A program made the translations under genes and the position numbers. DNA of 64,000 nucleotides from Acidobacteriota bacterium (GTDB lineage: Bacteria > Acidobacteriota > UBA6911 > RPQK01 > JAPXNP01): contig CAXXHN010000002.1 in the NCBI GenBank assembly GCA_963663735.2, forward strand, positions 205,073 to 269,072, in the 5' to 3' direction. The notes beneath the pieces were generated by a model. It was given only the letters and a program-made list of their open reading frames with translations. It searched no databases and was not told where the DNA came from. Position 1 is the first letter of the stretch; each line of letters opens with the position of its first letter. Below, piece by piece: positions 1,274-27,673 of the stretch.

Positions 1274-1310
1274 TAAGGAACGAAACAGCGGAGCGAGGAA
1301 CCCGAATACA

Positions 1311-2827
<1,517 letters not shown>

Positions 2828-3139
2828 CAGGTGAAATATTACCTGAAATAATTGTTTCTTAGTTAATTAATTCCTTGTTTCTCTGTTCTTACCTGCTCTT
2901 CCTGTCAAAAATCTCTGGGGTTTTACAACCTTGGAACTGAATAACCTGATTTTTAACCAAGTGCCTTAAATTGAAGGAATTGGTGTCGGTTAGGGAATTC
3001 TTGCAGGTTTCCGGTGGAAATGCCGGTCAGTGATCCGCGGCTGAGAGTGCGGTGAAGATCTTTTACAGACTGGAGAATATAGGGCAAATAATACAAACCA
3101 CAGTAAGAGGCGTGGAATTTTGCGAATGCGTAAATTTCA

Positions 3140-6091
<2,952 letters not shown>

Positions 6092-6174
6092 GAAATTTAC
6101 CCATTTGCAAAATATCTCAATGTGGATAATGTTGTTTCCCTATTCTCCAGTTTCTAAAAAAAGTATTTAAGTTT

Positions 6175-6291
6175 ACCGGCGGTTTTAGCGAAGGGGTAAC
6201 ACCTGTTCCCATCCCGAACACAGAAGTAAAGACCTTCAGCGCCGATGATACTGCACCGGAGGCGGTGTGGGAAAGTAGGTCATCGCCGGTT
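6175..6291 (+). rRNA. rrf: 5S ribosomal RNA
   Basis: ACCGGCGG...CACCTGTTCCCATCCCGAACACAGAAGTAAAG...GCCGATGATACT...GGGAAAGTAGGTCATCGCCGGT; terminal helix pairs. Confidence 0.98.
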
Positions 6292-22951: not shown

Positions 22952-25900
22952 ATGGGAAAAAAATCTATCCTTTGGATTCTTTTTGTTCTTTTATCCGCAG
23001 GATCGCTTGTTTTTACCTTCATCTACTTTTCCAATGCTTTTCCGCTGGTGAACCTGGACTTGCAGATGGACAGGTCTGGTGCCTTCAATTCTTCCCGGAT
23101 TCTGGCTGAGGAAAATAACTGGGGACCGGATGGTTATAAGCAGGCAGCTTCTTTTGGCGTGGACAGCACTGTCCAGACCTACGTTGAACTGGAAGCAGGG
23201 GGAGCTGAAGCCTTCAGCGAAATGATCGAAGGAAACCTGTATTCACCATACACCTGGCAGGTGAGGCATTTCCGGGAAAAAGAAGCCAGGGAAACGATAG
23301 TCTTGTTTACCCCGGCAGGAAAGGCTTACGGTTTCAGTGAGAAGCTTCCGGAAGAGGATCCTGGACCAGCACTGGAGAGGCCTGTCGCCCTGGAAATTGC
23401 CGAAGATACAGCCAGGAAACAATGGGGCATCAATTTTGACGGTTATAAACTGATCGAAACATCTGATGAGGTCCGCACCGGAGGCAGGATCGACCACTCA
23501 TTTGTTTATGAGAGGGAGGATGTCAAACTCGGACAGGCTTATTACAGGCTGAGGCTGGTTGTCGGAGGCGACCGGCTGACAGAGCTTCGTCATTACGTCA
23601 AGGTTCCAGAGGAATTCATAAGGTCCTACGAGGAGATGCGTTCAGCAAATGACACTATCGCGCTCTTGTCGAATATTGCTTTCTTTTTTCTCTATATCCT
23701 GGGTGGATGTGTGATAGGGCTGTTTTTCCTGCTGCGCCAGAAATGGGTGATCTGGAAAACTCCGCTCATGTGGGGAGGATTGATTGGATTGCTCCAGTTC
23801 ATCGCCGGAATAAATTATTTTCCGATTATGTGGATGCAGTACGATACAGCCATATCCTCGACCAGTTTCGTTCTGCAGCAGACAGGAGGAGTCCTGGCGT
23901 CTTCACTATTAATGGCCCTGCTTCTGGTACTGTCTTTCATGGCAGCAGAAAGCCTGACAAGAAAAGCATTTCCCGGACATGTGCAGTTGTGGCGAATATG
24001 GTCCAGGGATGTTGCCTCTTCACCACAGGTAGCCGGATATACTTCAGCCGGCTACCTGTTAGTGGGTGTCTTTTTTGCCTTTGAAGTATTGCTCTACTTG
24101 ATGAATTCCAGGTGGTTCGGGTGGTGGTCTCCTTCTGATGCCCTTTTTGATCCTGACCTGCTTGCAACCTACTTCCCATGGATGGGTTCAATAGCCAATT
24201 CCGCCCAGGCAGGCTTCTGGGAGGAGTGCCTGTTCAGGGCCGTACCCCTGGCCTGTGCCGCGCTGCTCGGGAAAAAATTTGGGAAAAAGGCATGGTGGAT
24301 AGGCGGAGCCCTGATTCTGCAGGCTGTTATTTTTGGTGCCGGACATGCCAATTACCCAGCACAGCCTGCCTATGCCAGGGTAGTGGAACTGATCATCCCG
24401 GCTATTGGGTTTGGCCTGATATATCTTTATTTCGGCCTGCTTCCGGCTATTGTCCTGCACTACGCCTATGACGCGGTCTGGATGTCGCTTCCCCTTTTCG
24501 TGTCAACGGCTCCAGGGATCTGGATTGATCGGACCATGGTGATACTCCTGACCCTGGTTCCCATGGGAGTTGTTCTCCTGGCCCGGCTGAGGTCCGGGCA
24601 ATGGAAAGCTGTTTCAGTCGATGACCTGAATGCTTCATGGCAGCCTGAGCCGGATCTTCCGGAAGCGGCGGGAGTTCCCGAAGAGCTCTCGTTTGAACAC
24701 GACAGCAACCCGGACGAGGTTGAAAGGAAACCGGGGAAGATTCTATGGATAGCCCTGGCTGTGGCTGGAGTCATGTCATGGGTGCTTTTGTCTGATTTTT
24801 CTATTGATGCCCCTCCTGTCTCGGTGGGACGGAAAACAGTAGAAGCTCATGCTGTATCAGAGCTCGAAGCAGAGGGAGTGATGCTGGACAGGAGTTGGAA
24901 GACTATCAGCACCATCGTGAATCCCATGGGGATTGACGACAGCTTCACCTGGAGGGAAGGAGGTCCAGATAAATATCATGAATTGATGGGTAAATATCTG
25001 TCTCCTCCCCAGTGGATAGTGAATTTCGTTACCTTTGAAGGGGATGTTGCGGCCAGGGCTGAAGAATACCGGCTGCATTTTAACGGTGCCGGAGAAAGGA
25101 TCCGTTACACTCACGTATTTCCGGAAAAGTCAGCAGGGGCGGTAATTGAAGAAGATGAAGCCCGAAAACTGGCTGATAAGGCAGTGCTTACTATTTATCA
25201 GCTTGATCCGGCCGAGCTGACGCTGGTGTCCTCAGAGCCGGTTAAGCGGGATAACCGGCGCGACTGGACATTCGTATATTCCGACCCGGTTCATTACGGG
25301 CTGGAACAGGGTGAGGCCAGGATTGAAGTGAACATTGCGGGAGACAGGATCAGCGACAGCAGGAGGTTTGTCTTTGTGCCTGAAGAATGGCAAAGGGATG
25401 AACGCAGCCGGATGATTGTTACCGATATCCTGCATTACGGGAGTTACGGCGTCCTGGGGGTGATTTTTCTCTGTGGAATGATCTGGGGTATTGTTTTCTG
25501 GAGCAAGAGGAAATTTTCTGCAAGGATTTTTCTGTATGGAACCGGGGGGATGTTTATCCTCAACGCCCTTGGTATAGTCAATAACTGGCAGCAGGTTCTG
25601 TCAGGGTTCAGTACGGCTCAACCCTTCCGGAACCAGGTATTGATCGTATTCCTTGGCAGTCTCCTGGTTACAGTTTTTCTCTCAGGGGCCGTCGGGTTGC
25701 TTCTTGGCCTGGCTTATTATCTTTCGAATGAAAGAAAAAGTTCGGGAAACCTGTTTGCCAGAGGAATGGCGATGGGTTTTTTTGCTGCCGGAGTGCTGGC
25801 CTTGATAGGACTTGTTTCACCTGACATGGAACCATTCTGGCCTGGTTCCGGAGCATTGAATGGAATGTTTCCCCTGCTTTACTATTTTGTCTCACCATTA

Positions 25901-26302
25901 AAGAGTCTGGTTTTGACCTCTGCCCTGCTTCTGTTTATCTTTTCAGCGGTTTCCTTCCTTACTCATGGATGGCATTGCAGAAGAGGGCAATTCAGTGTAC
26001 TTTTAGTCCTTTTAGGGGTACTGATTTCTGGCTCTCAAGGTGCATCTGACCTGACATCCTGGGTCATATCAGGCCTTCTGACCGGACTGGCTATTCTGGC
26101 GGCATATATTTTCCTGATCCGATACAGCCCGGCTGTGATCCCTCCGGCAATTGCCGCCGTGATGATCCTGGGTCAGGCAAAGGAAGTCTTTATCCAGCCT
26201 GGAGTACTTTCGATATCCGGCTTTATTATTACCGCGACTATGCTGGCAGCCGTGTCATATTGGTGGGTAAGTCACAGATATTCCGGGGTTGGAGAAGAGT
26301 GA
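22952..26302 (+). CDS. Large CPBP-family (Abi/CAAX) intramembrane glutamic endopeptidase-like protein
   Basis: EECLFR, FGAGH, H.AYD motifs; many TM helices; duplicated extracytoplasmic domain ending VKVPEEF / VFVPEEW. Confidence 0.82.
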   Translation: MGKKSILWILFVLLSAGSLVFTFIYFSNAFPLVNLDLQMDRSGAFNSSRILAEENNWGPDGYKQAASFGVDSTVQTYVELEAGGAEAFSEMIEGNLYSPYTWQVRHFREKEARETIVLFTPAGKAYGFSEKLPEEDPGPALERPVALEIAEDTARKQWGINFDGYKLIETSDEVRTGGRIDHSFVYEREDVKLGQAYYRLRLVVGGDRLTELRHYVKVPEEFIRSYEEMRSANDTIALLSNIAFFFLYILGGCVIGLFFLLRQKWVIWKTPLMWGGLIGLLQFIAGINYFPIMWMQYDTAISSTSFVLQQTGGVLASSLLMALLLVLSFMAAESLTRKAFPGHVQLWRIWSRDVASSPQVAGYTSAGYLLVGVFFAFEVLLYLMNSRWFGWWSPSDALFDPDLLATYFPWMGSIANSAQAGFWEECLFRAVPLACAALLGKKFGKKAWWIGGALILQAVIFGAGHANYPAQPAYARVVELIIPAIGFGLIYLYFGLLPAIVLHYAYDAVWMSLPLFVSTAPGIWIDRTMVILLTLVPMGVVLLARLRSGQWKAVSVDDLNASWQPEPDLPEAAGVPEELSFEHDSNPDEVERKPGKILWIALAVAGVMSWVLLSDFSIDAPPVSVGRKTVEAHAVSELEAEGVMLDRSWKTISTIVNPMGIDDSFTWREGGPDKYHELMGKYLSPPQWIVNFVTFEGDVAARAEEYRLHFNGAGERIRYTHVFPEKSAGAVIEEDEARKLADKAVLTIYQLDPAELTLVSSEPVKRDNRRDWTFVYSDPVHYGLEQGEARIEVNIAGDRISDSRRFVFVPEEWQRDERSRMIVTDILHYGSYGVLGVIFLCGMIWGIVFWSKRKFSARIFLYGTGGMFILNALGIVNNWQQVLSGFSTAQPFRNQVLIVFLGSLLVTVFLSGAVGLLLGLAYYLSNERKSSGNLFARGMAMGFFAAGVLALIGLVSPDMEPFWPGSGALNGMFPLLYYFVSPLKSLVLTSALLLFIFSAVSFLTHGWHCRRGQFSVLLVLLGVLISGSQGASDLTSWVISGLLTGLAILAAYIFLIRYSPAVIPPAIAAVMILGQAKEVFIQPGVLSISGFIITATMLAAVSYWWVSHRYSGVGEE

Positions 26303-26419
26303 AAAGGGAAGGGGGGAGTGCAGCGCCGCTAAATCGGGGAGGAGGGTAAGAGACGCTGCACTTTCAGATAAAAAGGTTTCTTTAAAGATTACTTTTTATC
26401 AGCGATTTTGTTTCGCTGT
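26301..26419 (-). ncRNA. Candidate small RNA with three hairpins and an anti-SD loop
   Basis: Stems at 26400-26405/26413-26418, 26367-26375/26392-26400 and 26317-26325/26354-26362; minus-strand loop CCCUCCUCCCC; pyrimidine tail; ECF-like promoter directly upstream. Not assigned to a known family. Confidence 0.55.
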
Positions 26420-26423
26420 TTAT

Positions 26424-26451
26424 TTAGACAGCATTTTCCCGGCTTAGTTCA
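26424..26451 (-). promoter_or_regulatory. ECF/sigmaE-like promoter
   Basis: Minus strand TGAACTA-agccgggaaaatgctg-TCTAA (16-bp spacer), preceded by A/T tracts; resembles the GAACTT-N16-TCTRA consensus. Confidence 0.6.
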
Positions 26452-26773
26452 AAATTTTTTTAAAAAAATAACTAAATAGTTGGAAAATAAGAAAATTTAA
26501 TTCTTATGATGTTCGATAAAAGGCTGGCTTGCCGCCACTCCTCCTTCTCAGACACCGGATTCCAGGCAGTGTGCCGCCTGTTTTCAATACACATTCAGTC
26601 GATTCAACAAATACTGCTATGATGAGGAAAGGCTCCTGAGGTTTGCATCGAAAATTTGCCTTGTACGGTTGACGGTAGAGGCTGGAAGATCGACAATTGG
26701 ATATCAGGAATTAAACCTGGAGTCTGGGGCAAATCTTGAATCCCGGATTATTATAAAGGCCAGGAAGAATATT

Positions 26774-27673
26774 ATGAAAAAAAACAGTGCGATAAAATCT
26801 TTAATTCTGATTGTCCTCCTTTTCCTGTCATCATCCGTCTTGTTTGGCGCAGATAAGATTACGGCCTTGATTATTGATGGGCAGAACAACCATGACTGGA
26901 AGCTGACAACTCCCTATCTCCAGGGTATCCTTGAAAACAGCGGAATTTTTTCGGTTAAGGTAAAAACCTCACCTGCCTCGGGAGATGACCTTTCATCTTT
27001 TTGTCCGGAATTTGCGGCGTTTGATGTTGTGGTTTTGAATTACAATGGGGACCCCTGGCCGGCCTCCACCATGGCGGCTTTCGAAAAATATGTGAAAAAC
27101 GGGGGAGGAGTTGTGGTTTATCATGCCGCTGATAATTCTTTCCCGGAATGGAAGGAATTTAACAGGATGATCGGACTTGGCGGATGGGGAGACCGGACTG
27201 AGAAGGACGGGCCTTACCTGAGATGGGAGGACGGAAAACCTGTGAAAGACAGTACTCCCGGCAAAGCCGGAAGCCATGGTAAAAGACATGAGTTCATTGT
27301 TGATAACCGGATTCCAGATCACCCTATATTGAGAGGCACCAGTCCCCGGTGGAAACATACCCTGGATGAGCTTTATGACAGCCTCCGGGGACCAGCCGAA
27401 AACATAACCCTCCTGGCTACGGCATATTCCGATCCGGAGACCGGTGGAACCGGTAAGAATGAGCCGATACTCTTCACGGTGGATTACGGTAAGGGGCGGA
27501 TTTTTCATACCGTGCTCGGCCATGACGATGTCTCCTGCTCGGGTGTCGGGTTCATGACTACTTTCGCCAGGGGCACTGAATGGGCAGCAACGGGAAAAGT
27601 TACAATTCCTGTACCGTCCGATTTTCCCGACGATAAGGTTGCTTCAAGCAGGAATCCCCTGGCAGAAAAGTAA
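26774..27673 (+). CDS. ThuA-like (trehalose utilisation) domain protein, secreted
   Basis: Signal peptide; IDGQNNHDW, GGGVVVYHAA, DELY, YGKGRIFHTVLGH, RGTEWAATG. Start ATG 26774 (ORF track 26669). Confidence 0.88.
   Translation: MKKNSAIKSLILIVLLFLSSSVLFGADKITALIIDGQNNHDWKLTTPYLQGILENSGIFSVKVKTSPASGDDLSSFCPEFAAFDVVVLNYNGDPWPASTMAAFEKYVKNGGGVVVYHAADNSFPEWKEFNRMIGLGGWGDRTEKDGPYLRWEDGKPVKDSTPGKAGSHGKRHEFIVDNRIPDHPILRGTSPRWKHTLDELYDSLRGPAENITLLATAYSDPETGGTGKNEPILFTVDYGKGRIFHTVLGHDDVSCSGVGFMTTFARGTEWAATGKVTIPVPSDFPDDKVASSRNPLAEK

Follow-up and report, generated by a model that had tools for sequence, protein, structure and literature searches.

The window analysed here, a stretch of 64,000 nucleotides from an Acidobacteriota genome of 3.98 Mb (G000, of the genus here called g1), carries on its plus strand a large gene for a membrane protein resembling the CPBP family and, beyond it, a ThuA-family gene. 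In the intergenic space between the two, on the minus strand, lies the element that concerns us: a promoter followed by three hairpins, the last of which holds out a C-rich loop (Table 1). The sequence-only reading of this DNA had proposed that the unit encodes a small RNA (sRNA) driven by an extracytoplasmic function (ECF) sigma factor and exposing an anti-Shine-Dalgarno (anti-SD) loop, and the GAACTA-N16-TCTAA promoter, the A/T tracts, the three hairpins and the C-rich third loop are all found on the minus strand exactly where it had placed them. After comparison with related genomes we think it probable that the minus strand carries here a functional RNA element under an ECF promoter, and we somewhat favor its being a single-copy, trans-acting anti-SD sRNA.

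Table 1. Features of the window, with positions counted from its first letter and hairpins numbered along the minus strand (ORF, open reading frame).
Feature	Position	Strand	Basis or remark
rRNA operon, complete	1309-6291 (16S 1309-2823, 23S 3140-6092, 5S 6175-6291)	+	16S 3' end reads GGATCACCTCCTTTCT
Convergent membrane protein gene, CPBP-like, 1116 aa, polytopic	22952-26302	+	ORF; g3 and g5 orthologues lie behind a promoter-hairpin unit
Tail CCCCCCTTCCCTTTT, C/U-rich, G-free	26316-26302	-	Directly 3' of hairpin 3
Hairpin 3, conserved core	AGTGCAGCG 26362-26354 with CGCTGCACT 26325-26317	-	Fold and covariation
Hairpin 3 core stem, 10 bp	26361-26352 with 26327-26318	-	Alignment of 10 sequences
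Anti-SD motif CCCUCCUCCCC (CCCTCCTCCCC)	26346-26336	-	Inside the 24-nt apical region of hairpin 3
Hairpin 2	GATAAAAAG 26400-26392 with CTTTTTATC 26375-26367	-	Fold; g1 only
Hairpin 1	CAGCGA 26418-26413 with TCGCTG 26405-26400	-	Fold; g1 only
-10 element GTCTAA (TCTAA 26428-26424 and the preceding G)	26429-26424	-	16-nt spacer between GAACTA and TCTAA
-35 element GAACTA, AAC invariant	26450-26445	-	AAC in 10/10 homologous units of five genera with diverged spacers
UP-like A/T-rich tract upstream of -35	26451-26470	-	A-run upstream of -35 in 4/4 g1 sequences
Divergent ThuA-family gene	26669-27673	+	Longest ORF opens at TTG 26669

The first hairpin begins five bases 3' of TCTAA, and exactly these three hairpins are predicted when the 127-nt minus-strand RNA is folded. 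The energy is -32.9 kcal/mol, whereas shuffled sequences average -14.3 (z -6.6) and none of 200 is as stable. The loop of the third hairpin is predicted to be open, with a mean unpaired probability of 0.90, and right after its stem comes CCCCCCUUCCCUUUU, the C-run reaching the stop codon of the convergent ORF (26300-26302). The loop motif CCTCCTCCC has 64 sites in the genome and is mostly unpaired in nine of them when folded in 80-nt pieces, and the window site is the sole one which, in folds read by eye, forms the apical loop of a stem of at least 10 pairs. No second copy was found in this genome, with BLAST returning the locus alone and a covariance model of the hairpin (R3, described below) giving one match. 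As the sequence-only reading had it, no ORF follows the promoter: on the minus strand downstream there is none of at least 40 aa besides frames antisense to the large gene. A mini-ORF of 10 codons in hairpin 3 (GUG-CAG-...-UAG) was rejected, having no Shine-Dalgarno (SD) sequence, a start codon buried in the stem and one non-synonymous change in a homologous locus (L031).

When the unit was compared by BLAST with 61 related genomes, credible matches appeared only in two other g1 species, both represented by Acidobacteriota metagenome-assembled genomes (MAGs): G001, with 82% identity over 117 nt, and G002, with 94% over 54 nt, where a contig start cuts the alignment. In G002 the unit is split over the starts of contigs C285 and C305, which overlap by 18 nt and between them hold both parts; in reality the locus is contiguous, and the assembly break falls inside the sRNA unit. 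One exact-pattern scan of metagenome contigs gave five loci, among them a full homologue (L031), while the other four were discarded as chance matches or tandem repeats. One pattern scan of genome contigs gave 12 loci, namely the two sister MAGs, three true cuckoo RNAs of Rhodobacterales and seven unrelated sequences. The unit, promoter included, is present in all three g1 genomes and in one metagenome contig, and the gene order of divergent ThuA gene, unit and convergent CPBP-like gene is kept in all four sequences where the flanks are visible. From promoter to tail the unit is 82-94% identical within g1, against a mean column identity of 45% in the remaining intergenic region and only 74-75% protein identity for the flanking ThuA. 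The spacing of GAAC and GTCTA(A/T) is constant within the genus although the spacer diverges. Hairpin 1 is present in all four g1 sequences, as is the pairing of hairpin 2, whose stem sequence differs between G000, G001 together with L031 (AAAUGAUC/GAUCAUUU in common) and G002. The loop of hairpin 3 is identical in all four save one G/A position, and each has a run of five to seven C after the stem. Covariation of hairpin 3 within the genus was not significant, with 2 of 13 pairs changed on both sides and 197 of 500 shuffles equaling it. Synteny based on ThuA gave nothing further, the five best ThuA orthologues from outside the genus having no such element upstream.

Covariance models built from the near-identical g1 sequences (R1 and R2) found nothing strong outside the genus. 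A weak match in G012 (E 0.15), however, led to a hairpin shared by the three g3 genomes and G006 (genus g5), with the stem core UGCAGCGCC/GGCGCUGCA as in g1 and a CUCCCC-type loop. Model R3, made from eight hairpins of g1, g3 and g5 and searched in 76 genomes of the order, detects the hairpin in 9 of the 16 genomes of the family, spread over five genera (3/3 in g1, 3/3 in g3 and 1/1 each in g5, g8 and g2; E 3e-6 for g8 and 1.7e-4 for g2), and in the other 60 genomes of the order it returned weak matches only (E > 0.01). Every copy has a C-rich, G-free loop, and the loop is predicted to be unpaired with a probability of 0.75-1.00 in the nine full-length units that were folded. In the core stem, aligned over 10 sequences, 98% of cells pair and 5 of 10 pairs have changed on both sides; none of 500 shuffles reaches this covariation score, a control that overstates significance because the sequences are related. 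Sliding the partner columns lowers pairing to 15-59% of cells. Units outside g1 have one hairpin each; what is conserved beyond the genus is hairpin 3 with its loop, plus the promoter, and hairpins 1 and 2 are genus-specific. The sequence-only reading is in this respect partly supported: its promoter, its three hairpins and its exposed loop stand, with promoter and loop conserved in all 10 units of five genera, but the first two hairpins are limited to g1.

Some weaker matches were set aside. One, with E 8e-4, is in G008; it lacks a C-rich loop and falls in or beside the coding end of a polA-like gene, about 475 nt upstream of the sigma gene called sigC below, and weak matches in G043 and G031 look coding. 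In a genome from another family of the order (G050, locus L085) there is a hairpin GUGCGGCGC/GCGCCGCGC with a loop, AGCCCUCCUCCCCCUUGAUUUU, much like that of the window and no matching promoter seen; distant kinship and convergence are both conceivable.

Upstream of the hairpin, AAC-N17/18-GTCT is present in 10/10 units of the five genera, and the spacers are unrelated. The -10 element takes the form GTCTAA in five units, GTCTTT in three and GTCTAT and GTCTAC in one each. By genus, the promoters read tGAACyN-N15-GTCTA(A/T) in g1, cGAACTA-N16-GTCTAA in g2, GGAACTT-N16-GTCTAA in g5, tCAACCTT-N16-GTCTTT in g3 and gCAACCCT-N15-GTCTAC in g8. The homologue of hairpin 3 begins 26-58 nt after the predicted transcription start in the nine folded units. 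Since AAC and GTCT are invariant while the spacers between them are unrelated, this is the strongest evidence for a real promoter directed at the C-rich hairpin.

Among the 15 sigma-70 region-2 matches of the source genome, three ECF operons were examined (sigA, sigB and sigC). The sigC operon (G000:C1:1704520; L146, C1:1704400-1706700) directly follows the end of the polA-like gene and encodes the ECF sigma factor, a 176-aa HxxxCxxC protein that is a putative anti-sigma factor, and a PDZ-domain protein, a layout that resembles envelope systems of the sigmaE/RseA/DegP type. Upstream of the sigC orthologues (L148-L162), GGAAC or GAAAC is followed by CGT 15-18 nt further on in all 15 family genomes that have the gene, and the -10 is CGT(T/C)T in 14 of them; the general form may be written GGAACtt-N15/16-CGT(T/C)TAA. 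In the source genome the sigC promoter gaaaaaaattGAAACTAAG-N15-CGTCTAA (GAAACTAAG) and the sRNA promoter aaaaaaattttGAACTAAG-N14-TGTCTAA (GAACTAAG) are near-identical, and a 'gaaaaaaatt' tract precedes the -35 of the operon promoter in all three g1 genomes, like the A/T tract of the unit. The sigmaE consensus is GGAACTT-N16-TCTAA, and the earlier description of the promoter as sigmaE-like agrees with this match: the sRNA promoter appears to be of ECF type, closely resembling the cognate-type self-promoter of the sigC operon. The sigA operon (G000:C1:1513480; L067, C1:1513388-1515600) encodes an ECF sigma factor and a zf-HC2-like protein. Its self-promoters have GTCTAA with an N15 spacer in 10/10 orthologues and a GAC-type -35 in 9/10 (cGACT(A/T)T, or GACCAT in G003), the source genome alone having AACTAT; not included in this count are lower-scoring paralogue matches and those of G013 and G005, which fall at the ends of contigs. 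We favor sigC over sigA because AAC is present in 10/10 sRNA promoters and in 1/10 sigA promoters, which makes sigC the best candidate sigma for the unit. The third operon, sigB (G000:C1:2081476), was rejected for this role, its self-promoter being GAAC-N17-CGTT in 3/3 genomes and a TCTAA upstream incidental. A promoter-like GGAACC-N16/17-(G/A)TCTAA is also seen upstream of a gene for a DUF5916 signal-peptide protein in both G000 (G000:C2:330179; L069) and G001 (L073), a family that is expanded, with at least 10 matches in G001.

The surroundings of the unit differ from genus to genus. In g1 it points at the 3' end of the CPBP-like gene, with no same-strand ORF behind it. In g3 and g5 an orthologue of that gene (54-57% identity) follows it on the same strand at a distance of 45-155 nt, and G012 (g3) has a divergent sulfotransferase gene. 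In g2 a sulfotransferase ORF follows after 34 nt and a major facilitator superfamily transporter gene precedes the unit, and in g8 the unit is divergent from a sulfotransferase gene and convergent with a homocysteine S-methyltransferase gene, with no credible ORF behind it. The unit therefore stands alone in g1 and g8 and just upstream of a gene (34-155 nt) in g2, g3 and g5. It behaves as an autonomous cassette whose orientation to its neighbors is not fixed, and such variable neighbors and orientation fit an sRNA gene. At the same time, its adjacency to the CPBP-like gene in g1, g3 and g5 suggests a functional or historical link. In g3 (L086, L091 and L092) the stretch from the C-rich hairpin to the SD sequence of the CPBP-like gene includes a conserved UUCCACGUUAAGAUGRCCGAC, and in G004 a short upstream ORF is possible that is not kept in frame.

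Could the hairpins simply terminate the CPBP-like gene on the plus strand, the promoter being a chance match? The plus strand of the 127-nt region does fold (-37.9 kcal/mol), hairpin 1 read on that strand is a terminator-like hairpin followed by TTTATTTAGA in a consensus scan, and pairing between the G-run and U residues extends the plus-strand version of hairpin 3. Yet the z-score of this fold is only -2.9, much weaker than the -6.6 of the minus strand, and no T-run follows hairpin 3 on the plus strand, so that hairpin 1 alone is terminator-like. The core stem has three wobble cells, each a U.G pair when the C-rich strand is read and a C.A or A.C mismatch on the other; wobble pairs thus fit the C-rich strand only, which argues against a plus-strand terminator. 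Together with the covariation and with the invariant promoter elements in 10/10 units, and given that in g2, g3 and g5 no convergent gene ends at the hairpin, this makes such a terminator very improbable. The sequence-only reading had named hairpins that merely terminate the CPBP gene as a finding that would refute it, and this seems not to apply. A different proposal is that the unit starts a long antisense transcript into the CPBP-like gene, acting by interference or by destabilizing the mRNA, with the hairpins only stabilizing its 5' end and the loop having no pairing role. No intrinsic terminator follows hairpin 3, and the stop codon of the gene comes as little as 14 nt past the stem in G000 and about 50 nt past it in G001. 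We nevertheless consider this improbable, as the loop is far more conserved than a stabilizer needs and the hairpin is also present in g2, g3 and g5, where no convergent gene follows closely.

Possible, though doubtful in our judgement, is that the unit is a cis-acting 5' leader, an ECF promoter with an anti-SD hairpin, which in g1 was cut off from its gene by rearrangement and now acts, if at all, on the adjacent CPBP-like gene through convergent transcription or antisense pairing. The positions of the hairpin before the orthologue of the very gene that it faces in the window (3/3 g3 genomes and the single g5 genome) and before the sulfotransferase ORF of g2 are those of a leader, and these downstream genes have GGAGG-type ribosome-binding sites that could pair with the C-rich loop or with an upstream ACUCCUC stretch. 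The CPBP-like gene of G000 lacks a leader of this sort and shows no SD sequence. In addition, with a terminator-like hairpin 1 and TTTATTTAGA on the plus strand, the CPBP-like mRNA may extend across the unit from end to end, which would make the two RNAs complementary over its full length. However, the orphan unit of g1 is the best-conserved part of its intergenic region, with a nearly invariant 24-nt loop, which is unexpected of a relic, and the unit of g8 likewise has no gene behind it. The downstream gene varies by genus (CPBP-like or sulfotransferase), and orientation to the sulfotransferase gene flips between g2 and g3/g8, which fits an autonomous gene. A combination of the two ideas, which we think rather unlikely, would make the unit a riboregulator in two evolutionary states. 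Some genera would use it as an anti-SD leader, placed before an ECF-controlled gene for a membrane-protease-like protein. In g1 it would have been freed by local rearrangement, acquired its two 5' hairpins together with a longer anti-SD loop, and become a trans-acting sRNA that faces its former gene and maybe still exerts antisense control over it. If true, this would document how a 5' leader within an ECF regulon gave rise to an sRNA, in a phylum that apparently lacks Hfq and has no sRNA known to be characterized. If the unit is transcribed as predicted, its being a leader in some genera and alone in others would offer a natural test of leader/sRNA interconversion.

Returning to the trans-acting sRNA that we favor, the unit is a real, conserved and strand-specific combination of promoter and hairpin, confined to one Acidobacteriota family. 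We regard it as a new family of sRNAs, belonging to a functional kind that is already known, with a predicted function; the RNA of the window is probably an undescribed translation-silencing RNA. We infer its transcription, the identity of its sigma factor, its action in trans, the repression and its mode of termination. An ECF sigma factor, with sigC the best candidate, would start transcription about 6-8 nt after GTCTAA and yield a non-coding minus-strand RNA of about 95-115 nt, in which two 5' hairpins peculiar to the genus precede the conserved one at the 3' side. The G-free loop CCCUCCUCCCC, with its CCUCC, copies the anti-SD core of 16S rRNA, and the C-run 3' of the stem is predicted to be unpaired as well. 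The 16S rRNA of the source genome ends in CACCUCCUUUCU, a canonical anti-SD tail, and the organism therefore has the tail which the loop of hairpin 3 imitates. Made when the ECF sigma factor is active, the RNA may serve as the non-coding, repressing arm of the regulon, its exposed loop pairing with the G-rich ribosome-binding sites of target mRNAs and blocking initiation. No Hfq gene was found in the source genome, which is 98% complete, and the RNA therefore probably acts without Hfq, in a chaperone-independent manner. As for its 3' end, no canonical terminator is predicted, and the end may be set by the hairpin with its C-rich tail, Rho being encoded in the genome, or by trimming back to the hairpin.

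A scan for targets, which covered the source genome, offers some leads only. The SD region UCGGGGAGGAG of a peptidase S9 gene (C1:1419283; L147, C1:1419112-1419290) is an 11-nt perfect complement of the loop, and a sigA-type promoter, GACTTT-N15-GGTCTAA, lies 144 nt upstream of this gene; promoter and loop match together could form a feed-forward loop. There is also an 11-nt match to the loop in the start region of a ParA-like gene and a 10-nt match at the ribosome-binding site GGGGGAGGAGGAGGAG of a small gene resembling those for outer-membrane proteins, and all three genes may be regarded as candidate targets.

Several observations weigh against the sRNA that we favor. Among sequencing runs, positions 25900-27100 of the window are listed as contigs in two DNA runs of one study and in no RNA run. 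Loop-complementary 11-mers occur 1-5 times in the source genome against about 2 expected, the locus included, with no clear enrichment. For the peptidase S9 candidate the sister genomes G001 and G002 offer no orthologue, only relatives of 25-27% identity. The promoter scan that the sequence-only reading had suggested likewise went against it in this genome: GAAC-N18-TCTAA occurs 10 times (6 non-coding) versus 13 times (7 non-coding) for the N13 spacing, and [AG]AC-N17/18-GTCTAA is no commoner than at other spacings, and the evidence for a regulon therefore rests on cross-genome conservation. The sigA operon likewise has a GTCTAA -10, and the assignment of the sigma factor is therefore not unique. 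No U-tract that could define the 3' end follows hairpin 3, in the window or in any homologue, the other genera having a CCCUUC-type tail; read-through from the unit would run antisense into the CPBP-like gene. Hairpin 2 of G002 has one A.C mismatch that is a G.U pair on the plus strand, and the shuffle control of the core stem, as noted, flatters the covariation. Finally, because a gene lies downstream on the same strand in three genera, the unit could equally act as a cis-acting leader in g2, g3 and g5, and such a role has to be kept in view for the family as a whole.

The neighboring genes add some detail. The sequence-only reading had let the unit end at the stop codon of a convergent CPBP gene, and the stop codon is indeed there, while the CPBP label is only partly verified. 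The 1116-aa protein had no Pfam or NCBIfam match, and its orthologue in G012 scores 22.3 bits against PF02517 (Rce1-like/CPBP), just below the cut-off of 22.4; by eye, WEECLFR and FGAGH are visible in the translation, which we take to be CPBP motifs. A 'GCGTCTTT' upstream of this gene in G000 was dismissed, since it is not kept in G001. The ThuA gene probably starts at ATG 26774, where a conserved GGAAGAATATT-ATG-AAAAAA aligns with the start region in three relatives, and the gene after it is of the phosphoglucomutase family. A second terminator-like hairpin of the plus strand (26563-26580, with 26520-26560), CAGGCAGTGTGCCGCCTG then TTTTCAATAC, is located between ThuA and the sRNA promoter and is not kept in relatives.

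That the unit belongs to no known family, as the sequence-only reading had suspected, is consistent with Rfam 15, where it has no match at gathering thresholds, and with the literature searched: one full-text query of main texts, in one wording, for an Acidobacteria sRNA under an ECF sigma factor returned only an unrelated genome paper. RNA regulation in Acidobacteriota thus seems to have received hardly any experimental study. If transcribed as predicted, the unit would be the first family-level sRNA of the phylum with a defined promoter, seed and candidate sigma factor.

Among known systems, the cuckoo RNAs invite comparison. The members of this alphaproteobacterial family (CcsR1-4/RSs0680a-d and ar14/NfeR1; RF02791 and RF02344) are controlled by stress sigma factors and carry CCUCCUCCC, an anti-SD sequence, in their loops; the family is defined by two to four adjacent hairpins, each with CCUCCUCCC, in Rhizobiales and Rhodobacterales, and CcsR is co-transcribed with an upstream small gene from an RpoHI/HII promoter (PMC4615179). 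The likeness lies in a stress-type sigma promoter coupled to an anti-SD loop, and theirs are the only Rfam models with even weak matches to the unit. These matches remain far below threshold, with 17.4 bits for the window and 20.3 for G012 against a gathering threshold of 65.3 for RF02791 (CcsR1), and 24.6 bits for G006 against 58.8 for RF02344 (ar14). The unit differs in that one of the three g1 hairpins bears the motif, hairpins 1 and 2 having A/U-rich loops, and that other genera have a single hairpin with a CUCCCC-type loop; it occurs in Acidobacteriota, has its own ECF-type promoter and lacks an upstream co-oriented small gene. Membership of the cuckoo/CcsR family was accordingly rejected on hairpin definition, Rfam thresholds, and taxon and promoter alike.

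MicA/RybB-type sRNAs have 5' seed regions and need Hfq. The unit differs from the sigmaE-dependent sRNAs of Gammaproteobacteria in presumably having its seed in an apical loop, and in coming from a genome where no Hfq gene was found. Homology to MicA, RybB, MicL, VrrA or MicV was not detected by Rfam at E up to 10 in window positions 26000-27000. In outline, however, the layout of its promoter is like the sigmaE consensus, and the regulatory logic proposed here is that of MicA, RybB, MicL and MicV: sigmaE-dependent sRNAs (MicA, RybB and MicL in E. coli; VrrA and MicV in Vibrio) form the repressing arm of the sigma factor's regulon (PMC4102768, PMC6694218). If our reading is true, the design of an ECF sigma factor with a repressing sRNA, as in sigmaE of enterobacteria and Vibrio, would extend to a distant phylum apparently without Hfq.

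Finally, the unit may be set beside the C-rich-loop sRNAs of Gram-positive bacteria (6C/B11 in Actinobacteria; RsaE/RoxS and RNAIII in Firmicutes). It differs from them in having no Rfam match, one C-rich loop with a C-rich tail in place of several loops, an ECF-type promoter and a distribution confined to one Acidobacteriota family. 6C is reported to be an RNA with C-rich loops that acts without RNA chaperones (PMC6486639), and in these sRNAs unpaired C-rich loops pair with G-rich ribosome-binding regions, as we propose here. The feature that the unit shares with this anti-SD/C-rich-loop class is a conserved, G-free loop, predicted to be unpaired and complementary to GGAGG-type sites.

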